Part shown: in pieces, positions 991-41,359 of the stretch | Layout: the number at the start of each line of letters is the position of its first letter | Numbering within the stretch: position 1 is the stretch's first letter | Assembly: GCA_023250195.1 (NCBI GenBank) | Contig: JAHFBF010000001.1 | Coordinates: 406,661 to 470,660 of the forward strand | DNA: 64,000 nt | Direction: 5' to 3' | From: Candidatus Melainabacteria bacterium | GTDB taxonomy: Bacteria > Cyanobacteriota > Vampirovibrionia > 2-02-FULL-35-15 | Made by a program: the position numbers and the translations under genes | Notes under the pieces: model-generated | Database searches by the model: none | Seen by the model: the letters and a program-made list of their open reading frames with translations, nothing else | Told to the model about the DNA's origin: nothing

Positions 991-3900
991 TTATTCACAT
1001 TTACTTGTTAAAGCATTAAACACCTTTCCTTCAGTACAGCCATCTGTTGCAGTTATAGTATTACTGCAAATAGTACGATCGATTGATAAACATAACTTAA
1101 ACGAATCACCAACACCAAATTTAGTAGTACCTCCATTACTTGCAATAGCAGCAAGAGTCAAATCATTTGTACCATTGGTACATACTGTAAAATAACTTAC
1201 AGTTGAAGAACCTTTGAAAAGATCGTAGCAAAGAGTACCTTCAGAAGAACTATGAGTAATTTTCATTTTGTCGTCAATGAGAACCGCACTGCTAAAGTTT
1301 ATTGTAGGATTATTAATACATGAAGTACCTGATGTAAGTGTTGCATAAAGTTGACCACTAGGACATTGACAAACATTTGCTGAACTAAAAGATGCCCCTG
1401 TACCACACTGGCAAGGATTTGATGATGAATAAGTTTCACCACGATAGCAGGTACGTGCAGTTGTCGGGCAACCAGTATTAACTTCTGGATACATCCCGTT
1501 AATGGTACATTTACAATAATCTGGATTAGACGGATCTTGATATTGATTAGTTGGGCACTTACAAGTATTAGTTGCTGGATCTAATACCTTAGTTGATGTG
1601 CAAGTTATTCCACCACTACAACCTGATACAGTATAACTTTGACCATTTGCACATTGACAACTTCCACCCGAACCTAATGTTGCACCAGAAGCACAGGTAC
1701 ATGGACTTGCTGCTGTTGATATTTCTCCTGATACACAGGTATGAGGAGCATTACAACCAGTTTCTTTTGTATAAGAAGCACTCGTTGGACACACACAATT
1801 TCCATTATTAGGATATGCTCCACCAGCCGGATTACATGTACAACCAGTTGACGTAGAAATACCTGGAGAACAATAGTTTGCAGTTGATGTATCACTACAC
1901 TGACCATCTGATCCTGGATTTTGTAAAGTTCCAGCACATAAGCATGAAGGTATTGGACCAGCAGGACCTGTTAATGGAGTACCAACTACAAGTGAACCTG
2001 GGCAAGCAGCTACACAGTCATTATTATAATAATATTTTCCATCAGGACATTTACATGGAGGCGTATAACCTGAATTCGAAGAATTATAAGCTAAATTATT
2101 TACATATGGTGATGAGCAAGTTTGCGCTGTTGAACCACTACATATTCCATTACTATTCGGATAGCTACCATCAGAACATTTACAAACTTTTCTTGAACTG
2201 CTATTTGAAGTAGCAGGAGCTGTAGATGCTACAAGATTAGATGGGCAAACAGAAACACAAGTTGTACCAAATTCATAAGGCACAGATTCCGGGCAAGCAC
2301 ATTGTGTAGGAAATGTCGGATCTTTAATATATGGTGATGGGCAACTTGATGATGGTGAATTACAACCAGATTCTTTTGTATAAGGAGCACTGGTTGTACA
2401 CACACAATATCCATTTAAAGCATATGCTCCACCAGCTGGATTGCATGTACAACCAGTTGACGTAGAAATACCTGGCGAGCAATAGTTTGTACTACTAGTA
2501 CACGTTCCGTTTTGATCAGGATAACTTTTATCAGGACATTGACAAGCTAATTGTGGTGCATAGTTACTAGCAGTTGTACCGCTGGTTTGTGGATAACCAG
2601 CAGTTAACCCTTCAGGACATTTTGCTACACAAGTAGCACCAAAATTTATCGGTGTAGCTTCTGGACATTTACATGGTGGGTTACCATTTAGATTTGTAAT
2701 ATATGGTGCTGGACAGCTTTGTGTTGTTAAAGTACCACAACCATTAGTTGTATAAGGTCCATTGTAATTTGCAGGACATTGGCATGGACCATTTCCATTT
2801 GCTCCACTTGCTACTGCTGGTGATGCACATGTACAATTATTTGCTTTTGGATATTCTCCATTTAGACAAATACGAGTTCCACTAGTAACACATGGCTGTG
2901 GAGATTTTGACGGAAGAGCTGGACTAGGTACAAGTCCATTTGGACAGCTTGATACACATGCAGTTCCATTCCAGAACTTTAATCCATCCGGACAGATACA
3001 TTGTGCTTCTCCATTGTTGTTTGGATTTGACAATAAATTACTTCCACACTGTGATTCTGTAACACACTTGCCACTAACTGGATCTTTTGTTTGACCAGCT
3101 GGACATGCACAACCTCCGGAACCATCACTTACAAATCCTTCTGGACATTTTTTCTTGCAAATTGATTGAGCTTCTGGTTTTACAAATCCTTTATCATCAA
3201 AATTATTTATTTGATCCTTACACAAACAATTTCTAGAATCACTGGAAGAAGTTGAAATCCCCTGCTTACAGCATTTAATTGAAAAATATTTAGATGATGG
3301 GTTTTCACAGTCTACTACTCTCCCGGCTTCTGCATCACAGACAAAATGGCAGTCACATACATCACACTTTGATAGATTTGTTTCAACTGAAGTCGTATTA
3401 AATCCAAATTTTTCTTCACATTCCCTATGGCAAGCACTTATTTCACATTGTTCAGCAATTTCTTCCGGCGTTGAAGGTGTGGATTTTGAAAAATTAGAAG
3501 GAACACAATATTCATTTCCTTTTGAGTTTTTTACAACTTTCCAGCCTGGCTTAAACTCAAGTCCACTAAAATTATCATCACTACAATCTTCTGCATGAAT
3601 ATCAATTCCAATTCTTGAACAATATAAATCTTTAACTGGTTTATGAACACAATTGTTTGTCACATTAGAATCTTCACAAAACCCGCTTCCATCAGAACAT
3701 TTTAATGACTTGTTTTGAAGCTCTTTACAGGACGAGGGAGGACATGGAAGGTTTTTGATTTTCCCTACTTTATAATCACTTAAAATCTCTGCATAAGCCT
3801 GACATGATTTATCATTATTCACTTCTCTGGTGTAATGCTCGCAGTAAGCCTTCCCAATTAAAACATTCTGATCATCAGGTGAAGCAAGAATTATTTTTTT

Positions 3901-4977
3901 AATTAAATCAAATTGAGGAAAATCACATTCTGCATCCTCAAGGAAATCTTTAAAATCCTTACCAATCGGAGTAAAAATAGATTCGTTATCAGATGTACAT
4001 CTAGAGGCAAACTTATCAATATTACAGCCAGTGGCACTGCTATTACCATTGTCCGTATTCCCTCCAGTGTTATCATTTGCTCCATTATCTAAGCCTTGTA
4101 ATTGATCATTTGCCACCTCAAAAGCCAGTTCTTCATTTTCCATTGCTAAATTTGCTGTTAAGGTTGAGTCTTCATCTACTATTAAATCTTGGTTAGTTAT
4201 ATCTCCATTTTTATCAGGATCTAAAAATGTTATTGCATACAGATCAGTATCAGTAACACAATGAACTAATGCTGTATCAATTTCTTTTGTTGAGCCATCC
4301 TCAACAGTCTGTGCTTTTAAATACTTTCTAGCTTTTGTCTGTGATCCTATTTTATCAGCTCTTACCTCTGTAAAAAAAGTACCATTTGGATCTGCTGCAA
4401 CAGTATTGTCTGAAATCTTATTCCCATTTAAATCTTCAATGGTAACCAAAGCAGCAACTTTAGAATCAACAGTACCTACAACCAATGCAGGTGTTTTGTA
4501 ATTAAAGGAATCTGTTGTTAAATCAACATTATCACCTAAAATCTTTATTATGTAATCATCATTCGGTAATGAGCTTGGAGATATAGTTATTCCGGAAGGA
4601 GTAGTTAAATTAAATAAGCTGATTACCAAATATTTACCTGAAATATTTTTAATTTTCTTCTTTTGTATACTTATTGAATTTTCTGGAATAGAATAAGTTT
4701 TTGTGCTATCAAGTTTTGAAGTTATGCTACAAGTAAGTTTATCCAGTTTAACTTGCCTGAATTTTTCAATTGTACTTTTTGGAAGCCGTACATTTATCTC
4801 ATCTTCTTTAGGATTTAAAACACTTCCATAAATGGTACTTTCACCTTTATTACTATAAACTTTGAATACCTGAATAGAAAGAGAATCTTTCTTTGCCGCA
4901 AGAACAGAATTAGAAGCAATTGTATAGAACAAAAGTACTATTAATAAATAAAAAAATATCCTACAGAATTTATTCAT
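991..4977 (-). CDS. giant secreted Cys-rich repeat protein (EGF-like CxCPxG modules); function unknown
   Basis: 1328-aa ORF with N-terminal signal peptide (MNKF...SVLAAKKD); about 300-aa N-domain clearly homologous to 5089..8604; then more than 100 Cys in tandem 25-35 aa modules (GxCxCPxG, CxCxxGxxY), including a near-identical internal duplicate (CSPGISTSTGCTCNPAGGAY...TKESGCN twice). Confidence 0.8.
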   Translation of the reverse strand: MNKFCRIFFYLLIVLLFYTIASNSVLAAKKDSLSIQVFKVYSNKGESTIYGSVLNPKEDEINVRLPKSTIEKFRQVKLDKLTCSITSKLDSTKTYSIPENSISIQKKKIKNISGKYLVISLFNLTTPSGITISPSSLPNDDYIIKILGDNVDLTTDSFNYKTPALVVGTVDSKVAALVTIEDLNGNKISDNTVAADPNGTFFTEVRADKIGSQTKARKYLKAQTVEDGSTKEIDTALVHCVTDTDLYAITFLDPDKNGDITNQDLIVDEDSTLTANLAMENEELAFEVANDQLQGLDNGANDNTGGNTDNGNSSATGCNIDKFASRCTSDNESIFTPIGKDFKDFLEDAECDFPQFDLIKKIILASPDDQNVLIGKAYCEHYTREVNNDKSCQAYAEILSDYKVGKIKNLPCPPSSCKELQNKSLKCSDGSGFCEDSNVTNNCVHKPVKDLYCSRIGIDIHAEDCSDDNFSGLEFKPGWKVVKNSKGNEYCVPSNFSKSTPSTPEEIAEQCEISACHRECEEKFGFNTTSVETNLSKCDVCDCHFVCDAEAGRVVDCENPSSKYFSIKCCKQGISTSSSDSRNCLCKDQINNFDDKGFVKPEAQSICKKKCPEGFVSDGSGGCACPAGQTKDPVSGKCVTESQCGSNLLSNPNNNGEAQCICPDGLKFWNGTACVSSCPNGLVPSPALPSKSPQPCVTSGTRICLNGEYPKANNCTCASPAVASGANGNGPCQCPANYNGPYTTNGCGTLTTQSCPAPYITNLNGNPPCKCPEATPINFGATCVAKCPEGLTAGYPQTSGTTASNYAPQLACQCPDKSYPDQNGTCTSSTNYCSPGISTSTGCTCNPAGGAYALNGYCVCTTSAPYTKESGCNSPSSSCPSPYIKDPTFPTQCACPESVPYEFGTTCVSVCPSNLVASTAPATSNSSSRKVCKCSDGSYPNSNGICSGSTAQTCSSPYVNNLAYNSSNSGYTPPCKCPDGKYYYNNDCVAACPGSLVVGTPLTGPAGPIPSCLCAGTLQNPGSDGQCSDTSTANYCSPGISTSTGCTCNPAGGAYPNNGNCVCPTSASYTKETGCNAPHTCVSGEISTAASPCTCASGATLGSGGSCQCANGQSYTVSGCSGGITCTSTKVLDPATNTCKCPTNQYQDPSNPDYCKCTINGMYPEVNTGCPTTARTCYRGETYSSSNPCQCGTGASFSSANVCQCPSGQLYATLTSGTSCINNPTINFSSAVLIDDKMKITHSSSEGTLCYDLFKGSSTVSYFTVCTNGTNDLTLAAIASNGGTTKFGVGDSFKLCLSIDRTICSNTITATDGCTEGKVFNALTSKCE

Positions 4978-5088: not shown

Positions 5089-8000
5089 TTATGGACATCC
5101 AGCCACCGGGGCATTACTGCCATCAGAACATACACAAACTCCATTTACTTTTGTTGCATTGGTAGGGCAGACACAAGTATTATAGTAATCATACTGACCA
5201 ATACCGCATATGCAGCCGTTTACCTGATCATAAGTATTCCCATAATTACATGAACATCCATTGGAACTTTGATATGAACTACCAGCACATGTACATGAAT
5301 TAGTCGAAGTAGAAACTTGTCCAGAAGCACAGTTTGGAGTACCAGTAGTTGTTACTACAGAACTGCACACAGTTAGATCACTATTACAAAGTTTTACATC
5401 AAGGTTAGATTGGAAACTGGAATTAAACTTAGATATTAAAGGTGATGTAGAACTATTTCCACAAAACACTGATGCATCAGAATGTACAGCAACATGATGA
5501 ATTGTCACAAGGTTTACACAGGAAGAAAAGTTTTTATTGTAATTTACTGTTACTGAACTACCGTTAATAGTGACACTATTTAATGTAATCTGATTTGCAG
5601 CACCTGTACAACCGCTGGCAACAGTATATGTTTGTCCTGATGGACACTGACAGGTTGAATCACTTCCAAGAGTTGCACTTCCAGTACATGTACATGGATT
5701 AAGATTTGAATACGCTTCGCCCGGCTCACAGTTATGAGCCCTAAAACAACCATTTGAAGAATAAGGTCCACTACCAGAAGGACATTGACATGTACCATCT
5801 GAACCTGCCATTGCATCTCCTGCACAATTACATGGATTTGATGAAGTTGAAACCTGCGAATTAGTACAAGTAGGAGTAGGACATCCAGATGCTGCATAAG
5901 TCTGTCCGTTTGTACATTGGCAGTATCCATTTGAATTAACTGTTGCACCAGAGGCACATGTACATGGATTACTAGATGTAGAAGCCTGGCTTGGTGAGCA
6001 ATAAGTTGTACTTCCAGCTGTTACAGTTACTATCTTTGAATCTTCTGAACATCCATTTGCATTGCATGCAACTACACGATACTCATAGCTTGTTCCTGAT
6101 GTAATACCATTATCGGTATATGTAGTAGTATTTGTTGAAAGGCTTTCTGTTAACAATGTCCAGGTTGATACCCCATAGTTTCGTCTGTATACTGAAAATA
6201 CTGTTTCATTATCTGCATTATCTGTCCATGTTAACAGTATTGTTCCATAAGTCTGTGAGTAAGCTGCTGTAAGAGCTGTTGGTGTTCTGGGGGAAGATCC
6301 TGTGGTACACCCGCTTGCTGAATAAGTTTGCCCACTTGGACACTGGCAAATTCCATTTGAATTTTTTGTTGCTGCTCCTGCACATTTACATAAATTAGAG
6401 GAGTTTGAAACTTCATCAGCGGCACAAGTATGCTGTGCTGCTGAACATTTTCCATTAGAATCAGGACTTGAGCTGTCAGAACATAAGCAGGTTAATAACC
6501 CGGTAGAAGATTTTTGAGGAGTAAGTAAAGCTGGACATGCTGCAACACATGTATCAAGGTAAGAATATTGAAGAGAATCAGGACACTTACATGATGGTGT
6601 CCCACCAGAATTAGAGATAAGTGGTGACTTGCATTGTGTTCCTAATAATGTTGATGATATACAAGAACCTGTCAATGGATCTTTCTTTTGACCTTCCGGA
6701 CAAATACAAATTCCTGAAATATCTTTTATAAAGCCAGGAGAACATGTACCATTACAAGCCAGTTTAGATTCCTCATATGCATATCCAATATCATCAAAAT
6801 TATTATTATCCCTGCAGAGACAGGCAGCTACATCCAGAATGACAGGAACTGAAGAAATTTTACCTGTAGAAAGATTAGATAAACTGGCAGAACTGCTGGA
6901 AACAGCCTGATAAGATAACTTTGAAGCCATACGAGCTTTTATAGAGTTACAGCATTGAATTGAAAAATATGGAGAGTTTCCATCAGTACAATCAATTATT
7001 TCTCCAAAGTCTAAATCACAGTTAAAATGACAGTTTTCAATCTCCGCTGGTGAGTTGTTTTCACATTGTCTGTGACAAAAATTATATTCACATTCTTCTG
7101 CCACATCTCCTGGAGAAGAATCTATCCCTGTAATTGGAGATAAAATAACTGGATTTGAAGGAACACAATACCGGTTCCCAAGAGAATTTTCTGCTACAAC
7201 CCAGCCAGGTTGTATTTCATCTGGACTAGCACTACTATCATCCACACAATCAGACTCTGAAAGTTCATCAGGCACCTGCAGGCAAAACAAATCTCTCTCG
7301 GGTTTACTAATACAGCTGTCACTTTGTATATCAATATCACAAAAGCTTTTCGAAGGTACACATTTTGGAGGTTTTATATTCTGGAAAACAGTACATTCAG
7401 AAGGTGGACAAGGGAGCTGTTTCACAAGACCAACCATAAAGTCATTTAACACCATAGAATAATTCCTACAAACTCTGGAACTATCTTCAGTCCTGCCAAC
7501 AAACTCACAATACCCTTTCCCAATACTACCTTCTTCAGCACTTAAGACAAAGTCAGTAACAAAATTAGGAAGGTTGCATTGAGGATTTGAAATGAGATTT
7601 TTCACATCATTACCAAGAGAAGCAGCTGCTTCTTCATCTTCTGTATCACAACGATCTGCAAACTGATTTATGTCACAATTTAAATCTCCAAATTCTGTAT
7701 CATCACCTGTATTAGACTGTAAATTTTCTAATTCTTTTTTTGCAACTTCCAGAGCCAGCTCTTCATCCTGTTTTGCCAGATTAGCTGTTAATGTAGTGCT
7801 TTCATTAACTATCAAAGGTTCATCTGCCTGTGCCCCATTGATTTCCGGATCATTATCCAAAGGAGTAATTGCAAAGAGATCTGTATCTGAGATTACATGA
7901 ATAACACCTACTGATAAGTCATCTTCAGCTACCTGATTTTTTAAGCTTGACCTTAAGGGATTCCTGTTGTTTACTGGTTTTACCATATCTGCTCTAACTT

Positions 8001-8604
8001 CAGTAAAAAAGGAACCATTTGGAGTTAACGTTACAATGCTATTCGAGATTTTATTACCAAGCAAATCTTCAACTACAACAAAACCAGAATTTTTTTGACT
8101 CACCATACCAACTACCAGTGTCGGAGTCCGGTAACTAAATGACTCTGTAGAAACATCAAGCATATTACTGACTATTCTTAGCTTGTAATTATCTGTCTGA
8201 AGAGCACTTGGTGGAATAGTTACACCTGATTGTGTTTTAACATTGAATAAGTTTACTGATAAAAATTTGCCATTTTTTTTATTCACTTTTCTGTTCTGTA
8301 ATTTAACTGCATCCTTAGATATGAGGAATTTTTTTGATGGATCTGCTATTGAACTTAAAATAATGGAAACATTATTCAAATCCCCCCTTAAAGTAGATAC
8401 AAGTACGGAATGGAGCGCAATAAACATTTGATCTTCCGTAGAATCTAAGACACTACCGTTAAGAACCTTCTCACCTTTATTATTTATAACTGTTAAAGCT
8501 CCATTGTTTGTGTTTTTTTTCTTAGCCACTGCTTCTGTAGAAAGGCCAAGAGATAAGAAAATCCCCATAAAAAAAGATAAAAATATAAAAGACAGTTTCC
8601 GCAT
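5089..8604 (-). CDS. giant secreted Cys-rich repeat protein with fibronectin type III-like domain; paralog of 991..4977
   Basis: 1171-aa ORF, signal peptide (MRKLSFIFLSFFMGIFLSLGLSTEAVA); N-domain alignable to the neighbour (e.g. TPTLVVGMVSQ / TPALVVGTVDS, FFTEVRAD in both); FN3-like segment TWTDNADNETVFSVYRR...YEYRVVACNANGCS; Cys-rich EGF-like modules. Confidence 0.8.
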   Translation of the reverse strand: MRKLSFIFLSFFMGIFLSLGLSTEAVAKKKNTNNGALTVINNKGEKVLNGSVLDSTEDQMFIALHSVLVSTLRGDLNNVSIILSSIADPSKKFLISKDAVKLQNRKVNKKNGKFLSVNLFNVKTQSGVTIPPSALQTDNYKLRIVSNMLDVSTESFSYRTPTLVVGMVSQKNSGFVVVEDLLGNKISNSIVTLTPNGSFFTEVRADMVKPVNNRNPLRSSLKNQVAEDDLSVGVIHVISDTDLFAITPLDNDPEINGAQADEPLIVNESTTLTANLAKQDEELALEVAKKELENLQSNTGDDTEFGDLNCDINQFADRCDTEDEEAAASLGNDVKNLISNPQCNLPNFVTDFVLSAEEGSIGKGYCEFVGRTEDSSRVCRNYSMVLNDFMVGLVKQLPCPPSECTVFQNIKPPKCVPSKSFCDIDIQSDSCISKPERDLFCLQVPDELSESDCVDDSSASPDEIQPGWVVAENSLGNRYCVPSNPVILSPITGIDSSPGDVAEECEYNFCHRQCENNSPAEIENCHFNCDLDFGEIIDCTDGNSPYFSIQCCNSIKARMASKLSYQAVSSSSASLSNLSTGKISSVPVILDVAACLCRDNNNFDDIGYAYEESKLACNGTCSPGFIKDISGICICPEGQKKDPLTGSCISSTLLGTQCKSPLISNSGGTPSCKCPDSLQYSYLDTCVAACPALLTPQKSSTGLLTCLCSDSSSPDSNGKCSAAQHTCAADEVSNSSNLCKCAGAATKNSNGICQCPSGQTYSASGCTTGSSPRTPTALTAAYSQTYGTILLTWTDNADNETVFSVYRRNYGVSTWTLLTESLSTNTTTYTDNGITSGTSYEYRVVACNANGCSEDSKIVTVTAGSTTYCSPSQASTSSNPCTCASGATVNSNGYCQCTNGQTYAASGCPTPTCTNSQVSTSSNPCNCAGDAMAGSDGTCQCPSGSGPYSSNGCFRAHNCEPGEAYSNLNPCTCTGSATLGSDSTCQCPSGQTYTVASGCTGAANQITLNSVTINGSSVTVNYNKNFSSCVNLVTIHHVAVHSDASVFCGNSSTSPLISKFNSSFQSNLDVKLCNSDLTVCSSVVTTTGTPNCASGQVSTSTNSCTCAGSSYQSSNGCSCNYGNTYDQVNGCICGIGQYDYYNTCVCPTNATKVNGVCVCSDGSNAPVAGCP

Positions 8605-8966: not shown

Positions 8967-9689
8967 ATGAAAAAGATAATTGCATTTGCACTGGCGTTGA
9001 TCTTGTTTGCACCAGTTGCATTAGCTGAAGAAAGCAGTTTTGAAAATTTGGTTTTAGATATTATTAAAAAAAATCCACAAGTTGTTAAAGAAGCTCTGGA
9101 AAAATATGAAAAAGAAGCTTCTGGCAAAAAACAGGAAGATGAATTTAATAAATTGTTTGAAGATACTGTAAAAGTTGAAATTGGTGATTCTCCTATAAGA
9201 GGAGATAAAAAAGCAGAATATACAATAATTGCTTTTTCAGATTTCCAATGCCCATTTTGCAAACGTGGTGATGACACAATTAAAGAGCTTATGAAAAAAT
9301 ATGACAAAAAAGTTAACTATGTTTTTAAAAATCTTCCTTTAGGTTTTCACCCTGAAGCAAAAAATGCAGCAAAAGCAACATGGGCAGCAGGCAAACAAGG
9401 GAAGTTTTACGAATATCACGATAAGTTATTCGAAAACCAAGGTAAACTTGCTGAGGATCTTTATGTTCAAATAGCAAAAGACTTAGGATTAAATCTTGAT
9501 AGATTCAACAAAGACAGGGCAAGTGAAGATGCTGAAAAATCAATTCAGGCAGACTCAAAACAAGCACAGGATATCGGTATTCAAGGAACCCCGGGATTTG
9601 TCTTGAACGGTGTTAAAATTCTTGGTGCCTATCCAATTGATCATTTTGAAAAAATTATTTCTCACTTTGAAACTACAGCAAAGAAGTAA
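8967..9689 (+). CDS. DsbA-like thioredoxin-fold thiol:disulfide oxidoreductase, secreted
   Basis: RBS AAGGAG 7 nt upstream; signal peptide (MKKIIAFALALILFAPVALA); CxxC active-site motif in FSDFQCPFCKRG; size typical of DsbA family. Confidence 0.75.
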   Translation: MKKIIAFALALILFAPVALAEESSFENLVLDIIKKNPQVVKEALEKYEKEASGKKQEDEFNKLFEDTVKVEIGDSPIRGDKKAEYTIIAFSDFQCPFCKRGDDTIKELMKKYDKKVNYVFKNLPLGFHPEAKNAAKATWAAGKQGKFYEYHDKLFENQGKLAEDLYVQIAKDLGLNLDRFNKDRASEDAEKSIQADSKQAQDIGIQGTPGFVLNGVKILGAYPIDHFEKIISHFETTAKK

Positions 9690-9713
9690 AGAACAAATTT
9701 ATGTAGACACATT

Positions 9714-9760
9714 AACGTTGGAGTTTTTCATAAAAAGCTCCAGCGTTATTATTTTTAAAT
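9714..9760 (+). terminator. hairpin plus T-tract downstream of DsbA-like gene
   Basis: AACGTTGGAGTTTTTCATAAAAAGCTCCAGCGTT imperfect inverted repeat followed by ATTATTTTTAAAT. Confidence 0.5.
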
Positions 9761-9840
9761 CCTGATAATAAAATAAATATATACCTCTTTAAAGAGAGTA
9801 TATAATGTAGAAGTTAGTTTAAAAACCAAGGAGAACGTAT

Positions 9841-10242
9841 ATGAAAAAGAGTTTTAACAAAAGAGCAATTATGTCAGCATTAGCAATTACAGTCGGTGCT
9901 GCCGCCAGCACTTCTGCAGCTGATTTCAGTCTAAAAGAAGTTAATAGCCAGTCCTTACTTATTGCACATGACGGAGAAGCCAAGTGTGGTGAAGGTAAAT
10001 GCGGTGAAAAGAAAGAAACCACTACCAAAGCAAAGGCTGCTGAAGCCAAATGCGGTGAAGGTAAATGTGGTGAAAAAAAAGAAACCACTACCAAAGCAAA
10101 GGCTGCTGAAGCCAAATGCGGTGAAGGTAAATGTGGCAGCAAAAAAGAGAGAAAAACAAAAAAAGAAGCTACTAAAAAAGCAAAAAGTGCTGAAGCCAAA
10201 TGCGGTGAAGGTAAATGCGGCGAAGGCAAAACAAAGAAATAA
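9841..10242 (+). CDS. secreted Cys-Gly repeat protein, candidate HvfA/bufferin-like RiPP metallophore precursor
   Basis: RBS AAGGAG; Sec-type signal peptide (MKKSFNKRAIMSALAITVGAAASTSAA); four tandem copies of EAKCGEGKCGE(KKETTTKAKAA); the core matches EAKCGEGQCG at the end of the small ORF upstream of the MNIO gene at 45292..45444. Confidence 0.6.
   Translation: MKKSFNKRAIMSALAITVGAAASTSAADFSLKEVNSQSLLIAHDGEAKCGEGKCGEKKETTTKAKAAEAKCGEGKCGEKKETTTKAKAAEAKCGEGKCGSKKERKTKKEATKKAKSAEAKCGEGKCGEGKTKK
9978..10230 (+). repeat. about 66-bp tandem coding repeats (4 units) within 9841..10242
   Basis: Units AGCCAA(G/A)TG(T/C)GGTGAAGGTAAATG(C/T)GG... repeated head-to-tail; the opposite-strand ORF 9819..10229 is an artefact of this repeat. 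Confidence 0.85.
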
Positions 10243-10287: not shown

Positions 10288-10656
10288 ATGGCAGATATCT
10301 TAATTTATATTGTCATTGGGTTAGTTGCAGGAATATTAAGTGGTTTAATTGGAATTGGTGGTGGGATTATAATTATTCCTGCTCTGGTTTTATTAGTGGG
10401 TCTCTCTCAACACGAAGCCCAGGGAACCACATTGGCAATGATGATTCCACCAATTGGAATCTTTGCTGCATGGACATATTATAAAAGTGGTTATGTAAAC
10501 CTGCCAATTGCAATTTTTTTATGTGTTGGGTTTTTATTCGGGGGATTGATTGGAGCAAAGATAGCCACAAGCGCCTCCTCAATAGTTTTACAAAAAGTAT
10601 TTGGCACAGCATTACTTTTAGTCGCTTTGAAAATGGTTTTTTTTAGTAAAATTTAA
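10288..10656 (+). CDS. short TauE/SafE-like (DUF81) membrane protein
   Basis: RBS AAGGAG; four predicted TM segments; N-terminal GxxxGxxSGxxGIGGGxxxxPAL motif typical of the TauE/SafE family. Confidence 0.55.
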   Translation: MADILIYIVIGLVAGILSGLIGIGGGIIIIPALVLLVGLSQHEAQGTTLAMMIPPIGIFAAWTYYKSGYVNLPIAIFLCVGFLFGGLIGAKIATSASSIVLQKVFGTALLLVALKMVFFSKI

Positions 10657-25015: not shown

Positions 25016-27964
25016 CTACTGCCCTGCAGGGAAGTCACAAATTACACGGAAGCCACGAGTACTCCCTGTAGCTGTAGTTTGATTTCTAAAGTCTGCTGTA
25101 ATAGGCGATGTAGCATCACTGGTTGAAGTATAATTTCCTCCACGAGTTATTGCATATTGAGCATCAGTACTATCCGTAAACAGTTTACCGCTATTCTTAC
25201 CACCATTTAAGTCAGCAGTAGCTCCAGATTGTGTTGGAAGACCTGATCCTTCAAAGTCTATGTCTACAGCAGCAGCACCACCTGCAATATCCTGAAAATT
25301 AAAGACACTGTTGTTTGTTGTAAATGGCAGTACTATTCCAGCTCCTGGATAGCCAGAATCAACTATAAAATCTGAACCACCAGACATAGAAGAATTTGTA
25401 ATCGTAAGGTCTCCCCATTCTTCTACATTACCAATCAAGTCATATACCTGCTTATCACCATCAAATGCACTATTTGAGTTAGTTACATCATCAGCTATTG
25501 CACTGGATGCAAATGTAGTACCATCAGTATTCTTAGTAGCTGAACCATCCAAAATATGTCCCCAGCTTTTAAAGCCAGTACCAGTTAAACATCTATCTCC
25601 AGTACCACTTTGATTTGGATCATCAGCACATTGGAATGAAGCACTATTTCTTAGATCTCTGTTTCCATCCCTGGTATTTCCTCTTTCATTCCAACCATTT
25701 GTAGCGGTTGCACCAAAGATGCTTTTTTGTTTTGCAAATCTGCCCAGTATATAAAGTGCTGTCCATTCCTTATTTCCAATAAGTTTACACGATCCTAAAG
25801 ATGAAATTTGGGCACTGGAAGCAGATGCGTTTGCTTTTGCAGTTGAGTGGCTTATGTTAGTCCAAGGTACTACATTTCTCTGACTGACAGGAATAGAAGA
25901 ACTGCCCTCTGCGGTAGCAGTAGCATCTGCTTTTGATGCTTCATATTTATTAATCCAGAAACCCCCAAAAACAATTCCATTAATAATAAATCTTGGTATT
26001 CTTACCATTCTTGTTGTACAAAGTGAAGATGGTGATACATCACATGAGCTTGTTGAGAAGGTCTTTTCATCTGAGTATGAATTCCAGCTAGAGGAAACTT
26101 CCTGAACTGTAGGAATATCATTTGCTCCTTGGCAGTCAGCCACTGTACATGACCCACTTACGTTTATATCTTCAGTAGCTGTATCACATGAACCATTGCC
26201 GTTTAAATCCCAGCAATTTAAACCATTAGTTCCATTGGTACCGTTAGTTCCGTTGGTTCCATTTGCTCCATTAGTCCCATTGGTTCCATTTGCTCCGTTG
26301 GTTCCATTAGTTCCATTACAGACATAATTTGTTGCTGTGACTTCACCGGAATCTAAAGTATTGTCATTATTTGAATCAAGCCCTGATTCTACTTTCTTGC
26401 CACCAGTAGAACAATTTGTTCCTGCTGATTCTGTAGTAATCTTTACCAAACTGTTTAAACCATTAGTTCCATTGGTACCGTTAGTTCCGTTGGTTCCATT
26501 TGCTCCATTAGTTCCGTTAGTTCCGTTAGTTCCATTGGTTCCATTACAGACATAATTTGTTGCTGTGACTTCACCGGAATCTAAAGTATTGTCATTATTT
26601 GAATCAAGCCCTGATTCTACTTTCTTGCCACCAGTAGAACAATTTGTTCCTGCTGATTCTGTAGTAATCTTTACCAAACTGTTTAAACCATTGGTTCCAT
26701 TGGTACCGTTAGTTCCATTGGCTCCGTTTGCTCCATTGCAGACAAAAGATGTTGAACTTACTTCACCAGAATCAAGCACACTATTTCCATTAGCATCAAG
26801 ACCAACTTCTATTTTTCTTCCACCTGTTGCACAATTTGCTCCGGCTGATTCTGTGGTTGATTTTGTAAGTGCATTATTTCCACCCATTCCATCACTACCA
26901 TTGCTTCCTGCATTTCCAGCAGTTCCAAGTGGAATAGTAAAAGTCAGGTTACAAAGAACCGGATCAAAAAACGCATCAGCCTTTGTCCCTGGTGCACCAT
27001 TATTTGCTGAGATCATTAATAATGCATTTAGATCATTACAGACACCCATACCATCCATGCCATTAATCCCATCCATTCCATCCATAATTACAACGGTAGG
27101 GATAGTTTCAGGAGACAAACTATTTGTTCCAAGGGTCTGATTATTTACAAATACTCCACCTACAATAGTTACTGTTGAGTTAAGAATCGGACTTGTAATA
27201 GTTATATCTCTAGATCCAACTGGAGCATCACTTTTCGGAGTAGCTAACACATCCAAAGTTGAATCATCTAAAGCTATAGTCTCTCTTACAGTAATATCAT
27301 TATTGCTGAATGAAACTTCTGTAAATGCATCTAATCCTTTACCTTTAATTGTAAGTTTATTTTCTACCCCGGCCTTTAGATCCCGTGTTATTGAATCAAG
27401 CCTAAACTCAGGTAGAGTAAACACAATCGTGTCAGCAGAATCATTGCCATCAACAGTAGCTCTTAAAGTATATTGGCCTGGTTTTAACCCTTTTACAAAA
27501 ATTTTGAATATTTTAAAGTCCAGGGCCTGAACTATTGAGCTTTGATTTTGAGTTTTATTTAAATTAAACGTAACTGATTGATTTTTTGTAACTATTTTAT
27601 TTTTACCTGTTTTTATTAAGTTTTGATCTTCTCTAAGCTCTGATATTCTAAATATCTTTAATCCAGTCATTAAAAGTGTGGCATTGTCAATTCCAAGACC
27701 TGTTCCCTGTGCACCAATAACTTCTACTTTTACAACCATTGCATCAGGCTTAAGTAACAGATCCAGGGATACTCTTTGATCAAGTTCTATATTATTCCTG
27801 TTATATCTGAATGCCGGCAATAAATTAGCTGATATTCTCTCTTGAGAAATTGTACTTCTGGCTTTTACTGCATAAATATTAACTGCATAAGCAGCACCGC
27901 TTTGATTCAGCAGAAGTACAGCTATTAATACAACCTTACATAGAAGACTTAACTTATTTTTCAT
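25016..27964 (-). CDS. giant secreted protein: conserved N-domain, Gly-Thr-Asn triplet tracts, Asp-rich repeat modules, C-terminal FGE-sulfatase (SUMF1)-like domain
   Basis: Signal peptide; N-terminal 330 aa nearly identical to 28187..32443; (GTN)n tracts; about 45-aa modules ...TESAGTNCSTGGKKVESGLDSNNDNTLDSGEVTATNYVCNG; C-terminal FGE-type motifs MVRIPRF...WINKYEAS, NKEWTALYILG, QVYDLIGNVEEW, TRGGNY...GFRVICD. Confidence 0.85.
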   Translation of the reverse strand: MKNKLSLLCKVVLIAVLLLNQSGAAYAVNIYAVKARSTISQERISANLLPAFRYNRNNIELDQRVSLDLLLKPDAMVVKVEVIGAQGTGLGIDNATLLMTGLKIFRISELREDQNLIKTGKNKIVTKNQSVTFNLNKTQNQSSIVQALDFKIFKIFVKGLKPGQYTLRATVDGNDSADTIVFTLPEFRLDSITRDLKAGVENKLTIKGKGLDAFTEVSFSNNDITVRETIALDDSTLDVLATPKSDAPVGSRDITITSPILNSTVTIVGGVFVNNQTLGTNSLSPETIPTVVIMDGMDGINGMDGMGVCNDLNALLMISANNGAPGTKADAFFDPVLCNLTFTIPLGTAGNAGSNGSDGMGGNNALTKSTTESAGANCATGGRKIEVGLDANGNSVLDSGEVSSTSFVCNGANGANGTNGTNGTNGLNSLVKITTESAGTNCSTGGKKVESGLDSNNDNTLDSGEVTATNYVCNGTNGTNGTNGTNGANGTNGTNGTNGTNGLNSLVKITTESAGTNCSTGGKKVESGLDSNNDNTLDSGEVTATNYVCNGTNGTNGANGTNGTNGANGTNGTNGTNGTNGLNCWDLNGNGSCDTATEDINVSGSCTVADCQGANDIPTVQEVSSSWNSYSDEKTFSTSSCDVSPSSLCTTRMVRIPRFIINGIVFGGFWINKYEASKADATATAEGSSSIPVSQRNVVPWTNISHSTAKANASASSAQISSLGSCKLIGNKEWTALYILGRFAKQKSIFGATATNGWNERGNTRDGNRDLRNSASFQCADDPNQSGTGDRCLTGTGFKSWGHILDGSATKNTDGTTFASSAIADDVTNSNSAFDGDKQVYDLIGNVEEWGDLTITNSSMSGGSDFIVDSGYPGAGIVLPFTTNNSVFNFQDIAGGAAAVDIDFEGSGLPTQSGATADLNGGKNSGKLFTDSTDAQYAITRGGNYTSTSDATSPITADFRNQTTATGSTRGFRVICDFPAGQ
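26221..26317 (-). repeat. hexanucleotide (GTTCCR/TTGGTN) tract encoding (Gly-Thr-Asn)n
   Basis: CCATTAGTTCCATTGGTACCGTTAGTTCCGTTGGTTCC...; further tracts at 26458..26548 and 26688..26740; the opposite strand reads PLVPLVP (artefact ORFs 26337..26555, 26565..27140). Confidence 0.85.
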
Positions 27965-28186: not shown

Positions 28187-31100
28187 TTAGAAGTCACAGA
28201 TTACACGGAATCCACGACGCTCGTCAGTAGTAGTAGTCACATCATTACCATCAATTATAAGTGGTGAAGGAGCACTGGCACCATCATTACAAGCACCACC
28301 ACGAGTTATACCGTATTGTGCATCTGTTGTAGTTGTAGAAAGAGTTCCTGAATTCTTCCCGCCATTTGTATCATTCAAGCCACCATTTGCAGTAGCAGGA
28401 AGTCCAAGTCCACTAAAAGTAGATGATGTTGATATATCTATAGAGTTAAAGATCGCTCCATCTGTCGTAAATGGAAGCACTGATCCTGCTCCTGTATAGC
28501 CAGTATCAACTACAAAGTCTGAGCCAGACATGGTAGAAGAATTTGTAAAAGTATAGTCAATCCATTCTTTTACATTTCCAACAAGATCATAGACCTGTTT
28601 ATCACCATCCAAAGTATCAGCACCTGATCCACCATTGTCATCTTTAACAGCATCTGCTGTACTACCAAGTGAAGTACCTGTCGCATTTATAGTAGCTGAA
28701 CCATCTAAAAGATGTCCCCAGCTCTTATAACCTGTTCCAGTTAAGCAGACATCGCCAGTACCACTTTGATCTGGATCATCTTCACATACAGATGAACCAC
28801 TATCTCTGCCATCTCTGTTTCCATTTCTGGTATTCCCTCTTTCATTCCAACCGTTTGTAGCAGTTGAACCAAAGAGTCCTGTACTTTTTGCAACTTTACC
28901 AAGAATATAAAGAGCAGTCCACTCTTTCATTCCTATAAGTCTGCATGAACCAATACCAGTAATTTGTCTATTTAAACTAGATGCATTTGTCTTTGCAGTA
29001 GCCTGACTTATGTTTGTCCATGGCTCTACTCTACGTTGGCTTACAGGTACACTAGAAGTTCCTTGATCTGTTGCTGTAGCATTTGCTCTAGAAGCTTCAT
29101 ACTTGTCTATCCAGAAACCACCATACTCTACACCTTTATAAGTAAACTTTGGTATTTTTACCATTCTAGTCATACTGCTCATGTCATTTGTAGTGTAGTT
29201 TACTTCATCAGATAAAGTATTCCAGTTATTCACCAAACCGATAATTGCTGCTTCCTGGCAATCATCAGCTGTATATAAACCGTCATTATTTACATCTTCA
29301 GCTGCATCATTTACACCATCTTCATCTACATCCCAGCAGTTAATTCCATTAGTTCCATTTGAACCATTGGTTCCGTTTGTACCATTAATTCCATTACAGA
29401 CATAGCTGGTAGAAGCGATTTCACCACCAGTTAGCATATTGTCATTATTTGCATCAATACCGGCTTCCACTTTCTGACCGCCAGCTGTACAGTTTGCACC
29501 TGAACCTTCAGATGTTACAACAACTAAGCTAGTTGAGCCATTGGTTCCGTTAGTACCATTAGTTCCATCAGTTCCAGCACAATCAGCAACGTCTACTACA
29601 GTATCACCATTTAGATCTTCAGTTGCTACATCACCTACTCCATTATTATTTAAATCCCAGCAGGCTTGTCCGTTGGTTCCATTAGTACCGTTAGTTCCAT
29701 TAGTTCCGTTGGTTCCGTTAGTACCATTGGTTCCGTTTGTACCATTAGTTCCATCAGTTCCAGCACAATCAGCAACGTCTACTACAGTATCACCATTTAG
29801 ATCTTCAGTTGCTACATCACCTACTCCATTATTATTTAAATCCCAGCAGGCTTGTCCATTGGTTCCGTTGGTTCCGTTAGTTCCATTGGTTCCGTTAGTT
29901 CCGTTAGTTCCGTTGGTTCCGTTAGTTCCATTAGTTCCGTTGGTTCCGTTTGTACCATTGGCTCCATTACAGACATAGTTTGTAGAAGTAATTTCACCAC
30001 CAGCTAAAGAACCATTATTATTTGTATCCAGTCCAGATTCTACTTTTTTCCCACCATTAGCACAATTTGCACCAGCTGATTCTGTAGTAACCTTTACCAA
30101 GCTGTTCAAACCGTTGGTTCCATTTGTACCATTAGTTCCGTTGGTTCCGTTTGTACCATTGGCTCCATTGCAGACATAGTTTGTAGAAGTAATTTCACCA
30201 CCAGCTAAAGAACCATTGCCATTTGTATCTATTCCAGATTCTACTTTCTTTCCACCATTAGCACAATTTGCACCGGCTGATTCTGTAGTAATCTTTACCA
30301 AACTGTTCAAGCCATTGGTTCCGTTAGTTCCGTTAGTACCATTAGTTCCATTTGTACCGTTGCATACATAAGTAGTTGATGTAATTTCTCCTCCACTTAA
30401 AGAACCATTGCCATTTGTATCAACCCCACTCTGTATCTTCTTTCCACCATTAGCACAGTTTCCACCTGGGTTTTCATTTGAGGATGTTACAAGTGTTTGT
30501 AAACCATTGCAAACATATGATGTAGCATCAACTTCTCCCGAGTCAAGAGTACTATCACCATCATCATCTACTCCTACCTGAATTTTTCTTCCACCGTTTG
30601 CACAGTTTCCACCTGGGTTTTCATTTGAGGATGTAATTAAACTGTTTGATCCATTACATGCATAAGTCGTAGAGTCTATTTCACCTGCATCAAGTGTGTT
30701 ATCTCCATCATCATCTACTCCTACGCGAATCTTTCTACCACCGCTTGGACAGTTTGCTCCAGATGGTTCGCTTGAAGATGTAATTAAACTGTTTGATCCG
30801 TTACATGCATAGGTTGTAGAGTCTATTTCACCTGCATCAAGTGTGTTATCTCCATCATCATCTACTCCTACGCGAATCTTTCTACCACCGCTTGGACAGT
30901 TTGCTCCAGATGGTTCGCTTGAAGATGTAATTAAACTGTTTGATCCGTTACATGCATAAGTCGTAGACTCAACTTCTCCAAGATCAAGAACATTGTCTCC
31001 GTCATCATCTACTCCTGCCTGAAATTTTCTACCACCACTTGGACAGTTTGCTCCGGATGGTTCGCTTGAGGATGTAATTAAACTGTTTGATCCATTACAT

Positions 31101-32443
31101 GCATAGGTCGTTGATGTAATTTCTCCACTATCAAGAACACCACTTCCATCAGTGTCAGTACCAACTTCAAACTTTTGCCCACCGCTTGGACAGTTTGCTC
31201 CGGATGGTTCGCTTGATGTATTAGTTAAACTATTTTCACCTGCAGGAATACCAAGAACTAAAGTACACAAAATAGAATTAAAAGTAGTAGTAGCTGCTAA
31301 ACCTGGCGCAAGGGTAACATTTGAAATTACAAGTGTTGCATTCATATCATCACAAACACCCATTCCATCAGATCCATTACTTCCATTAATTCCATTAAAA
31401 CCTACAGGAATGCTGAAAGTAAGGTTACAAAGAACTGGATCAAAAAACACATCAGACATTGAACCTGGGATTCCATTGTTTGTAGTAATCATTAATAAAG
31501 CATTCATATCATCACAAACACCCATTCCATCCACGCCATTCATACCATCCATAATTACAACAGATGGATTAATGTTTGCATTATCAGGAGATAAACCATT
31601 TGTTCCAAGGGTCGGATTATTTACAAGTACTCCATTTACTATAGTGACCGTATTGCCAGTAAGCGGACTTGTAATAGTTACATCTCTATAACCATTTGGG
31701 GCATTACTTGTTGAAGTTGCCAATACCTTTAAAGTAGAATCATCTAAAGCTATGGTATCTCTTACAGTAATATCACCATTGCTGAATGAAACTGCTGTTA
31801 ATGCATCCAATCCTTTTCCTAGAAGTGTAAGTGTAGTTTCAACACCGGGATTTATAACTGATGGGGTTACTGCATCCAGTCTAAAGTTTGGCCTTGTAAA
31901 CACAATCGTGTCAGTAGAATCATTATCATCAATAGTAGCTCTTACAGTATATTGGCCAGGAAGACGTCCTTTTACAAATACTTTGAATATTTTAAAGTCC
32001 AGAGCCTGAACTATTAAGCTTTGATTTTGAGTTTTATTTAAATTAAAAGTAACTGATTGATTTTTTGTAACTATTTTGTTCTTGCCTGTTTTTGTCAACT
32101 TTTGATCTTCTCTAAGCTCTGATGTTCTAAATATCTTTAATCCACCCATTAAAAGTGTGGAATTATCAATTCCAAGGCCTGTTCCCTGTGCACCAATAAC
32201 TTCTACTCTTACAACCATTGCATCAGGCTTAAGTAACAGATCCAGGGGTATTCTTTGATCAAGTTCTATATTATTCCTGTCATATCTGAATGCCGGCAAT
32301 AAATTAGCTGATACTCTCTCTTGAGAGATTGTAGTTTTGGTTTTAACTGCATAAATATTAACTGCATAAGCAGCACCGGTTTGATTCAGCAGAAGTGCAG
32401 CTATTAACACAACCCTACATAGAAAGCTTAATTTATTTTTCAT
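28187..32443 (-). CDS. giant secreted protein, paralog of 25016..27964 (expanded repeat modules, C-terminal FGE-sulfatase-like domain)
   Basis: 1418 aa; same signal peptide and N-domain; at least 7 tandem 45-aa modules SLITSSSEPSGANCPSGGRKxxVGVDDDGDNTLDAGEIDSTTYACNGSN (three nearly identical); (GTN)n tracts up to 13 triplets; duplicated CWDLNNNGVGDVATEDLNGDTVVDVADC units; C-terminal YDLVGNVKEW / GFRVICDF. Confidence 0.85.
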   Translation of the reverse strand: MKNKLSFLCRVVLIAALLLNQTGAAYAVNIYAVKTKTTISQERVSANLLPAFRYDRNNIELDQRIPLDLLLKPDAMVVRVEVIGAQGTGLGIDNSTLLMGGLKIFRTSELREDQKLTKTGKNKIVTKNQSVTFNLNKTQNQSLIVQALDFKIFKVFVKGRLPGQYTVRATIDDNDSTDTIVFTRPNFRLDAVTPSVINPGVETTLTLLGKGLDALTAVSFSNGDITVRDTIALDDSTLKVLATSTSNAPNGYRDVTITSPLTGNTVTIVNGVLVNNPTLGTNGLSPDNANINPSVVIMDGMNGVDGMGVCDDMNALLMITTNNGIPGSMSDVFFDPVLCNLTFSIPVGFNGINGSNGSDGMGVCDDMNATLVISNVTLAPGLAATTTFNSILCTLVLGIPAGENSLTNTSSEPSGANCPSGGQKFEVGTDTDGSGVLDSGEITSTTYACNGSNSLITSSSEPSGANCPSGGRKFQAGVDDDGDNVLDLGEVESTTYACNGSNSLITSSSEPSGANCPSGGRKIRVGVDDDGDNTLDAGEIDSTTYACNGSNSLITSSSEPSGANCPSGGRKIRVGVDDDGDNTLDAGEIDSTTYACNGSNSLITSSNENPGGNCANGGRKIQVGVDDDGDSTLDSGEVDATSYVCNGLQTLVTSSNENPGGNCANGGKKIQSGVDTNGNGSLSGGEITSTTYVCNGTNGTNGTNGTNGTNGLNSLVKITTESAGANCANGGKKVESGIDTNGNGSLAGGEITSTNYVCNGANGTNGTNGTNGTNGTNGLNSLVKVTTESAGANCANGGKKVESGLDTNNNGSLAGGEITSTNYVCNGANGTNGTNGTNGTNGTNGTNGTNGTNGTNGTNGTNGQACWDLNNNGVGDVATEDLNGDTVVDVADCAGTDGTNGTNGTNGTNGTNGTNGTNGTNGTNGQACWDLNNNGVGDVATEDLNGDTVVDVADCAGTDGTNGTNGTNGSTSLVVVTSEGSGANCTAGGQKVEAGIDANNDNMLTGGEIASTSYVCNGINGTNGTNGSNGTNGINCWDVDEDGVNDAAEDVNNDGLYTADDCQEAAIIGLVNNWNTLSDEVNYTTNDMSSMTRMVKIPKFTYKGVEYGGFWIDKYEASRANATATDQGTSSVPVSQRRVEPWTNISQATAKTNASSLNRQITGIGSCRLIGMKEWTALYILGKVAKSTGLFGSTATNGWNERGNTRNGNRDGRDSGSSVCEDDPDQSGTGDVCLTGTGYKSWGHLLDGSATINATGTSLGSTADAVKDDNGGSGADTLDGDKQVYDLVGNVKEWIDYTFTNSSTMSGSDFVVDTGYTGAGSVLPFTTDGAIFNSIDISTSSTFSGLGLPATANGGLNDTNGGKNSGTLSTTTTDAQYGITRGGACNDGASAPSPLIIDGNDVTTTTDERRGFRVICDF
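29670..29970 (-). repeat. hexanucleotide tracts encoding (Gly-Thr-Asn)n plus duplicated about 190-bp unit
   Basis: GTTGGTTCCATTAGTACCGTTAGTTCC... tracts at about 29670..29760 and 29858..29970 flanking duplicated ...CAGCACAATCAGCAACGTCTACTACAGTATCACC... units; the opposite-strand ORF 29541..29978 is an artefact. Confidence 0.85.
30470..31210 (-). repeat. tandem about 135-bp coding repeats (45-aa Asp-rich modules)
   Basis: Repeated ...TCCACCTGGGTTTTCATTTGAGGATGT... and ...GGACAGTTTGCTCC(A/G)GATGGTTCGCTTGA(A/G)GATGTAATTAAACTGTTTGATCC... blocks; boundaries approximate. Confidence 0.75.
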
Positions 32444-38120: not shown

Positions 38121-38193
38121 TGGACCCAAGCGGGTTCGAACCGCTGACCTCCTCCGTGCAAGGGAGGCGCTCTACCAACTGAGCCATGGGCCC
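38121..38193 (-). tRNA. tRNA-Ala (anticodon UGC)
   Basis: Reverse complement GGGCCCATGGCTCAGTTGGTAGAGCGCCTCCCTTGCACGGAGGAGGTCAGCGGTTCGAACCCGCTTGGGTCCA folds as a cloverleaf: 7-bp acceptor stem with the G3:U70 alanine identity pair, anticodon loop CTTGCAC, T-loop GGTTCGAAC; CCA not encoded. Confidence 0.85.
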
Positions 38194-41330: not shown

Positions 41331-41359
41331 CAAAAATAAAGTTACTTATTCAATTTACT

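Follow-up and report, generated by a model that had tools for sequence, protein, structure and literature searches.

The stretch of "Candidatus Melainabacteria" DNA analysed here (the window, 64,000 nucleotides at its full length) encodes one cysteine-glycine motif at two distant places. Four copies are found in a secreted protein of 133 amino acids, encoded at 9841–10242 on the forward strand, and a fifth lies beside the gene for a multinuclear non-haem iron oxidase (MNIO), 35 kb away. An earlier note on this DNA had proposed the 133-residue protein as a second, multi-core substrate of that enzyme. Two questions are raised by this locus: what kind of protein the distal gene encodes, and whether an enzyme pair encoded so far away acts on it. 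We consider it likely that 9841–10242 is a stand-alone hvfA gene, encoding a peptide-metallophore precursor that is modified by the HvfB and HvfC homologues (HvfBC) encoded 35 kb away.

The distal precursor

The gene at 9841–10242 starts with ATG and is preceded by a strong Shine-Dalgarno sequence, AAGGAGAA, located at 9828–9835 and ending 5 nt 5' of the start codon. Its product contains eight cysteines and is made up of a signal peptide (residues 1–26), an N-region (residues 27–45) and four EAKCGEGKCG units, connected by linkers rich in lysine and threonine. The Sec-type signal peptide (9841–9918, forward strand) was assigned by eye from its n-, h- and c-regions, an AXA-like site and hydropathy. 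The basic n-region, MKKSFNKR, is followed by the hydrophobic core AIMSALAITVGAAA, with a Kyte-Doolittle value of about 2, and by the residues STSA, after which cleavage is predicted (TSA/AD, with small residues at the site). The signal peptide is kept in the alignment of 10 relatives, and this conservation, together with the inspection, bears out the Sec signal predicted in the earlier note. The conserved N-region, ADFSLKEVNSQSLLIAHDG (9919–9975, forward strand), has five invariant residues in alignment A2: F29, L31, E33, A42 and G45. It is presumed to be the region that contacts HvfC, by analogy with the published HvfA (PMC11252979). The closest relatives have in common the signal peptide and an N-region of the form (KDPL)FSLKEINSQSxLIAHDGE, and the number of units varies among them.

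The first unit, EAKCGEGKCGE, is formed by residues 46–56 (9976–10008) and contains Cys49 and Cys54; the second, of identical sequence, is formed by residues 68–78 (10042–10074), with Cys71 and Cys76. The third, EAKCGEGKCGS (residues 90–100, 10108–10140), contributes Cys93 and Cys98, and the fourth, again EAKCGEGKCGE (residues 118–128, 10192–10224), Cys121 and Cys126. All four are on the forward strand, and no cysteine of the protein falls outside them. In the DNA, the first three are held in a 66-nt tandem repeat of 2.4 copies with 95% matching. A six-frame scan of the window for KCGxxxCG found these four units and one more copy, at 45328–45351 on the reverse strand, and nowhere else. The fifth copy reads EAKCGEGQCG and is located directly 5' of the MNIO gene, so the shared motif of the distal and local precursors that the earlier note described is really there.

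The 133-residue protein matches the NCBIfam model NF050137 (KCGExKCG_twice), titled HvfA family oxazolone/thioamide-modified RiPP (ribosomally synthesised and post-translationally modified peptide) metallophore, in three stretches and with 59.6 bits, the cutoff being 19.5 (E = 1.7e-16). Against the HvfA equivalog model NF050188 it scores 74.3 bits, under the cutoff of 95, and a Pfam scan gave no model matching the protein. Its database homologues number 1539 at E <= 1e-3, several of them named HvfA family RiPP metallophore. The paired E-[GA]-K-C-G 5-mers by which the family is recognised are present in all four units, and they are combined with the Sec signal peptide that was seen on inspection and is conserved in relatives. 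On these matches the protein is assigned to the HvfA/oxazolin family (Buf_EGKCG, "captophorin") as a member, not as an HvfA equivalog, and in itself it is an ordinary precursor of that family. The likeness to HvfA- and bufferin-type precursors that the earlier note pointed out is confirmed by the profile score and the homologues.

The AlphaFold2 model of the protein has a pLDDT (predicted local distance difference test score) of 43.9; this fits a disordered, peptide-like substrate and proves nothing. A sequence search of the PDB found no relative of HvfA or HvfC. On the strand opposite to hvfA, the repeats produce a mirror open reading frame (ORF) of 136 amino acids (9819–10229, reverse strand), which reads PSPHLPSPHL and so on. 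A gene caller picked this opposite strand in a public assembly (L022, 2667–2933), and HvfA-type genes may be under-called in metagenome-assembled genomes (MAGs). Could the motif be a chance Gly/Lys/Cys linker with no relation to RiPP precursors, or is the true gene the one at 9819–10229? The low-complexity composition, the low pLDDT and the choice of the gene caller in L022 would agree with this, but the NF050137 match at three times its cutoff, the strong Shine-Dalgarno sequence, the signal peptide and the N-region conserved in 10 relatives make it so improbable that it can hardly be entertained. The profile match and the N-region rule out a chance low-complexity linker, and with it the common linker that the earlier note had named as a possible refutation; the opposite-strand ORF is ruled out as a mirror artefact of the repeats.

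The exact window sequences of HvfA and of the short local precursor described below are absent from the protein collection that was searched. The DsbA-like protein encoded next to hvfA (P0123) is present in it at 100% identity, on a contig of 631,998 bp. On an ENA contig with this identical DsbA-like protein, from a strain variant, a gene for 111 amino acids is called 152 nt past the DsbA stop, the offset found in the window. Its product is shorter than the window HvfA by exactly one unit of 22 amino acids (66 nt); to judge from this comparison, close strains seem to differ in the number of repeats.

The likely modifying enzymes

The MNIO gene, hvfB (44472–45323, reverse strand), encodes a DUF692 protein of 283 amino acids. 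The protein matches PF05114 (MbnB_TglH_ChrH) with 320 bits over its full length (profile positions 1–262 of 263) and PDB entry 3bww at 8.5e-55. Its top NCBIfam match is HvfB (NF003818, 299 bits, cutoff 360), BufB reaching 286.5 bits, and the match to the MbnB family is distant (46.8 bits). The partner gene, hvfC (43726–44472, reverse strand), encodes a DUF2063/NGO1945_C protein, for which PF09836 scores 38.7 bits and PF22106 22.7 bits, under the gathering score of 27; the top NCBIfam match is HvfC (NF050145, 91.4 bits, cutoff 142). It starts with a GTG overlapping the hvfB stop, and this coding overlap (TAGTG) suggests coupled translation. Since HvfA, HvfB and HvfC are all below their equivalog cutoffs, they are best described as diverged relatives and not as equivalogs. 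By its profile scores the enzyme pair belongs within the HvfB/BufB super-cluster, HvfB and BufB scoring nearly the same. Each of the two genes is single-copy in the window. Scanning for promoters and terminators around hvfBC gave nothing informative.

The earlier note had placed the enzyme pair at 44472–45347 and 43726–44472. Its HvfB- and HvfC-like nature stands, by the profiles; the start of the first gene does not, and is likely to be the ATG at 45323. The GTG at 45347 was rejected as a start: from it the KCGEGQCG motif is read out of frame, and relatives start at ATG or at TTG or GTG equivalents. In two related loci (L004 and L008), the carboxy-terminus of HvfB is altered and longer, and downstream no hvfC is found, unrelated genes being present instead (one of them for an 884-residue protein rich in Ala, Gly and Thr); the MNIO system looks disrupted in this sub-lineage.

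Two loci in related genomes

Groundwater "Candidatus Melainabacteria" MAGs and metagenomes are the source of the close relatives of the window HvfB, which share 76–88% identity with it. On contig JACQBQ010000026.1, hvfA (L005) and hvfBC (L002) converge at a distance of about 25 kb, the arrangement also seen in the window, at 35 kb. In the HvfA homologue search, the longest contig recorded for protein P0009 measures 280,759 bp, and the contig of hvfB locus L007 is also 280,759 bp long. Nine hvfA loci were compared, representing six distinct proteins (L005, L010/L011/L012, L013/L014, L017, L019 and L023). The gene order in these is a ScsC-like DsbA gene, hvfA, variably YceI, a half-size TauE or a major facilitator superfamily gene, and then FKBP, a protein of 32x amino acids, YkuD and PGM. 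Wherever the upstream flank of hvfA was recovered in a relative, the neighbour on that side is the ScsC-like gene, and there is no MNIO gene in any of the nine recovered loci. The hvfBC locus, wherever it is long enough, has the conserved order flavin reductase, CoA-transferase, the short local precursor (where present), hvfB, hvfC, CcdA, a thioredoxin-fold protein and a 2Fe-2S ferredoxin.

Because the same layout recurs in related genomes, the separation of hvfA from hvfBC is judged to be an old and stable feature of the clade, and no accident of assembly. The earlier note had called such a split unusual, which was overstated: PMC12452194 already describes precursor genes that stand alone and MNIOs that may take more than one substrate. 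At one locus (L003), hvfBC is present, yet about 10 kb of flanking DNA on either side contain no EGKCG-type ORF; the substrate of this enzyme pair must therefore be encoded elsewhere. Given the recurring two-locus layout, one enzyme pair for two precursors is the most economical reading. Separately, a lone gene for an HvfA-like protein of 159 amino acids was seen in a member of the Bacteroidota (L024, 10001–13538, JBPLRG010000104.1), with no MNIO within 10 kb; its neighbours encode gluconate-2-dehydrogenase subunit 3, a GMC oxidoreductase and DoxX.

The same comparison can be read in two other ways. In one, the 133-residue protein is an unmodified, cysteine-rich periplasmic metal or redox buffer, the thiols of which are handled by the ScsC-like enzyme, and HvfBC serves the short local peptide only. 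The distance to hvfBC, the constant place of hvfA beside a DsbA/ScsC-like gene and never beside an MNIO gene, and the score under the HvfA equivalog cutoff all agree with it. We nevertheless find it quite unlikely: the sequence of the units is exactly that of a motif for which modification by an MNIO has been demonstrated by experiment, one and the same motif makes up the local and distal cores (with the local peptide of L001 aligning to the HvfA N-terminus and unit 1), L003 has hvfBC without any local precursor, and stand-alone precursor genes are common in the class. In the other, the distal HvfA is modified by a second MNIO pair beyond the window, leaving the local HvfBC for the short peptide alone. 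About 64 kb were examined, whereas the contigs that represent this genome exceed 600 kb, which leaves room for such a pair; against it, two further genomes have hvfA and the same hvfBC locus on one contig (the second by way of the 280,759-bp match), no second MNIO is found in any fetched locus, and both peptides carry the same core. This we regard as very improbable, and modification of the distal HvfA by the pair in the window is the reading followed here.

A probable short precursor at the start of hvfB

The fifth copy of the motif belongs to an ORF (45292–45444, reverse strand) that encodes, from the ATG at 45444, a peptide of 50 amino acids, MTNNALVFKGFVWFIRQIRSCEDRLKHYIEAKCGEGQCGGDGKNISKRKK. 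This mini-ORF contains no signal peptide and a single core with two cysteines, CGEGxCGGDG, and overlaps the ATG of hvfB by 32 nt. Among nine hvfB loci compared (the window, L001, L002, L003, L004, L006, L007, L008 and L009), it is present in six, namely the window, L001, L002, L006, L007 and L009, each time with its 3' part overlapping the hvfB start. At the other three (L003, L004 and L008) it is absent, and hvfB begins at a TTG that overlaps the stop of the CoA-transferase gene. In a tree of HvfB, the loci with and without the mini-ORF fall in separate clades. The encoded peptides are 29–62 amino acids long, all without a signal peptide, with the core I-E-x-K-C-[GS]-E-[GE]-x-C-G-G-D-G.

The pattern of variation is that of a coding sequence. 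Over the 14 core codons, 13 of 14 third positions are variable, compared with 3 of 14 first and 5 of 14 second positions (hypergeometric P = 8e-5), and the ratio of non-synonymous to synonymous variation (pN/pS) is 0.19 in the frame of the mini-ORF, while the two other frames give 1.64 and 1.20. In L006, a change from GAT to GAC preserves the aspartate yet abolishes the ATG of hvfB; the core serine is encoded by AGT in L007 and by TCG in L009. The frame and both cysteines are intact in all 11 distinct sequences. A profile search with the mini-ORF found seven gene-called members and no others; one of these has, throughout its length, 67% identity with the peptide of the window. BLASTP aligns the L001 peptide with residues 27–65 of the window HvfA, that is, with the mature N-terminus and unit 1 (E = 2e-7), and the window peptide scores 19.5 bits against NF050137, exactly at the cutoff, on one half-repeat, having a single unit and no signal peptide. 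We conclude from these comparisons that the mini-ORF is genuinely coding, is under selection and descends from hvfA, and the local leader-type precursor of the earlier note is upheld as a conserved ORF. The idea that the mini-ORF is simply the 3' remainder of a former hvfA was considered and is unsupported: the alignment is to the N-terminus and first unit, not to the last, and selection at the codon level is purifying. Of the two precursors, the local peptide is the atypical one, and the distal secreted protein with its multiple repeats is the canonical type.

If the mini-ORF were non-functional, being either a decaying in-operon remnant of hvfA or an upstream ORF or ribosome-binding region for hvfB, the distal protein would be the sole substrate. 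This would account for its absence from L003, L004 and L008, for the lack of a Shine-Dalgarno sequence, for a leader that is poorly conserved (total length 29 to 62 amino acids, with the leader almost gone in L006), and for the overlap with the hvfB ATG, where GGxGGxGATG looks like a ribosome-binding site. Part of the core lies over the hvfB start region, so that hvfB could supply some of the constraint, and the selection analysis rests on a small sample of sequences. The period-3 variation and the low pN/pS in this frame only, the substitution in L006 that spares the aspartate and not the hvfB start, the two kinds of serine codon and the unbroken frame and cysteines speak the other way. A non-functional mini-ORF is in our view rather unlikely, and it is treated below as a second precursor.

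The mini-ORF and hvfB are directly preceded by a fused CoA-transferase gene (45464–47260, reverse strand), which is probably on the same transcript. A palindromic element, TGTCATTGCGAGG...CCTCGCAATGACA, takes the CoA-transferase position upstream of the mini-ORF in L001 (about 900–1060), and the upstream DNA of L006 also differs from the CoA-transferase arrangement; the CoA-transferase/hvfB junction is thus not universal.

Proposed pathway

In the pathway that we propose, the 133-residue pre-protein would be synthesised in the cytoplasm, where HvfB and HvfC would oxidise all eight cysteines of the four units to 5-thiooxazoles. Export of the modified protein by Sec would follow, with cleavage of the signal sequence near residue 26. 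Once periplasmic, the chain, rich in lysine and for the most part disordered, could bind up to about four Cu(I), one for each pair of heterocycles, and so buffer or scavenge copper alongside the ScsC-like thiol oxidoreductase encoded next door. The same HvfBC pair would also modify the mini-ORF peptide (45292–45444) in the cytoplasm. That HvfBC modifies both peptides, giving Cu(I)-binding 5-thiooxazoles, is the most likely reading of the sequences, because the motifs are identical, two 5-mers suffice as a substrate, the loci occur together and the hvfBC of L003 has no local precursor. As a more tentative possibility, one HvfBC pair may supply two copper ligands to two compartments: the distal, Sec-exported protein with four sites, and a translationally coupled peptide of 29–62 amino acids with a single Cu(I) site. 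The small peptide would then be a cytoplasmic copper buffer, or a methanobactin-like chalkophore with a thiooxazole core of the HvfA type.

Several points weigh against this reading. We infer modification in trans from motif identity, co-occurrence and the published tolerance of the enzymes; the chemistry, export and copper role of the 133-residue protein are likewise deduced from its sequence. The HvfA, HvfB and HvfC equivalog models all score under their cutoffs (74/95, 299/360 and 91/142). The window is 64 kb of genome, and another MNIO could be encoded elsewhere. No homologue-search match came from the 555,854-bp contig of L003. No DoxX (HvfX) gene is found near hvfA or hvfBC, nor in the other ORFs scanned, which were part of those in the window. 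Finally, hvfA and the ScsC-like gene are separated by a hairpin, and their pairing may be positional only.

Genes around the two loci

The gene upstream of hvfA (8967–9689, forward strand) encodes a ScsC-like, DsbA-family periplasmic thiol oxidoreductase with CPFC at residue 95, and the best solved relatives of this protein are the ScsC copper-resistance proteins 4xvw, 6mhh, 6nen and 4gxz. A terminator-like hairpin (9713–9748, forward strand), with 16 pairs and a T-run, is located between the two genes. They are thus probably on separate transcripts, and the hairpin suggests that hvfA begins its own. Downstream, after a gap of 45 nt, a gene for a half-size TauE/SafE-family membrane protein (10288–10656, forward strand) has its own AAAGGAGAA and is probably co-transcribed with hvfA. 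The DsbA-like and TauE-like flanks of the earlier note are as it described them. The TauE-like protein has 120–122 amino acids and covers profile positions 2–109 of 237 in the window, in L017 (1152–1514) and in L023 (3465–3827); since it is half-size in all three genomes, it appears to be a conserved short form and no truncation.

At the other locus, a gene for a CcdA/DsbD-type transmembrane thiol-reductant transporter (43015–43722, forward strand) is convergent with hvfC, and is accompanied by a gene for a thioredoxin-fold protein with CETC and a hydrophobic N-terminus (42395–42883, reverse strand). The neighbourhood of both is conserved, and both flank hvfC in all loci in which that flank was recovered. 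These two genes, together with the likeness of the neighbour of hvfA to ScsC copper-resistance proteins, suggest a role in copper handling. An Rfam scan of the window found one transfer RNA only, at 38121–38193 on the reverse strand, and no riboswitch near hvfA or hvfBC. In L013 (2614–3887), hvfA and the ScsC-like gene have between them genes for an extracytoplasmic function sigma factor and a putative anti-sigma factor of 245 amino acids, both inserted genes being divergent from hvfA; this hints at envelope-stress control in that genome. A YceI gene directly follows hvfA in L005, L017 and L019, but not in the window, where a YceI-like gene is at 54922–55455 (reverse strand) and a gene for a DCC1-like thiol-disulfide oxidoreductase at 32762–33325 (forward strand).

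Further features were observed. Two very large secreted proteins, of 1328 and 1171 amino acids, are encoded at 991–4977 and 5089–8604 (both reverse strand). At least the 1171-residue protein is extremely cysteine-rich, with repeated C-x-C...NG-x-C-x-C-P-x-G-Q-T-Y modules and an fn3 domain. Giant genes are likewise present upstream of the ScsC-like gene in L010 and L019, and the giant cysteine-rich secreted proteins could be clients of the ScsC-like oxidoreductase. Tandem paralogues of 982 and 1418 amino acids (25016–27964 and 28187–32443, both reverse strand) have near-identical signal peptides and N-termini, MKNKLS[L/F]LC[K/R]VVLIA[V/A]LLLNQ[S/T]GAAYAVNIYAVK... A methyltransferase gene (reverse strand) and an ORF6N-domain gene (forward strand) at 40256–41917, between the 2Fe-2S ferredoxin gene and a gene for a secreted protein of 203 amino acids, have no equivalent in L002, L003, L006 or L007, which indicates a small insertion specific to this genome.

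Comparison with known systems

The HvfA of non-typeable Haemophilus influenzae (NTHi; NTHI1441) contains AEGKCGEGKCG repeats, in which all six motif cysteines are modified by an MNIO and a DUF2063 partner (PMC11252979); the modification has been reassigned to a 5-thiooxazole, a copper-binding heterocycle (bioRxiv 10.64898/2026.06.05.730506). The window protein has the same Sec signal peptide, short N-region and repeated A-E-[GA]-K-C-G-E-G-K-C-G of the NTHi HvfA/oxazolin system, with the same kinds of presumed partner enzymes, and would be expected to carry Cu(I)-binding 5-thiooxazoles, two per unit. It has four units instead of three, with longer linkers (a 22-residue period), and lacks cysteines in the N-region, where NTHi HvfA has the C38–C43 disulfide. 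NTHi has a single operon, hvfX-A-B-C, whereas in the window 35 kb separate hvfA and hvfBC, and a DoxX gene was not found nearby. The hosts also differ, a member of the Pseudomonadota on the one side and the Melainabacteria MAG lineage on the other.

According to PMC12452194, the Buf_EGKCG/oxazolin family is found mostly in the Pseudomonadota, in signal-peptide or transmembrane forms; sizeable proportions of bufferin precursors are not adjacent to MNIO genes, stand-alone precursor genes exist, tandem precursors point to multi-substrate MNIOs, and DoxX is not in all clusters, which occur in 'various combinations'. The window protein shares with these precursors the signal peptide and the EGKCG repeats, and its stand-alone gene has parallels among them. 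The supplement text, in its available part, holds no Melainabacteria entry, and no description of a conserved mini-precursor without signal peptide, overlapping an MNIO start, was found in the part of the article available. What differs here is the Melainabacteria host, the loci with no DoxX found nearby and the constant association with genes for ScsC-like, CcdA and thioredoxin-fold proteins. The family, so far mainly known from the Pseudomonadota, is extended to non-photosynthetic relatives of the cyanobacteria, and the window supplies a natural example, and a clean one, of an MNIO that presumably works in trans on a far-off precursor.

The main novelty is the conserved single-site mini-precursor that has no signal peptide and overlaps the hvfB start. 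FonBC converts the minimal FonA substrate EAKCG+EGKCG to two 5-thiooxazoles; two 5-mers are enough for modification, and no single leader residue is required (PMC13097082). Before the cysteine, FonBC tolerates T, A and R and not E; after it, only G or A (PMC13097082). The 5-mers of the window units are identical to those of FonA (fontiphorin, "captophorin" class), and the mini-ORF supplies just two such 5-mers, which would make it a near-minimal natural substrate like the engineered FonA peptide. It differs in having Q, N, T or D for K before the cysteine of the second 5-mer, and Ser for Gly after the first cysteine in L007 and L009. With MbnA and MbnBC the likeness is in architecture only: a short cytoplasmic leader-plus-core peptide with two modifiable cysteines that would form one Cu(I) site, encoded directly 5' of an MNIO gene. 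There is no sequence similarity to MbnA, the chemistry would be thiooxazole and not oxazolone/thioamide, and neither a MATE exporter nor a TonB receptor nor an MbnC homologue came to light. If functional, the mini-precursor would be the first substrate of the HvfA type to lack an export signal, and would raise the question whether thiooxazole metallophores also work inside the cell or as small, diffusible chalkophores.

With the ScsC/ScsB system the similarity is one of neighbours. The protein encoded next to hvfA matches ScsC structures near full length, including the N-terminal stem and CPFC, and a CcdA-type membrane reductant carrier and a thioredoxin-fold protein are encoded beside hvfC. 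The similarity is moderate and of a DsbA-family-wide kind (E about 1e-19), there is no full ScsB, and the link to HvfA comes from synteny only. The recurring ScsC-like, CcdA and thioredoxin neighbours suggest that the metallophore is linked to the envelope thiol-redox response to copper.

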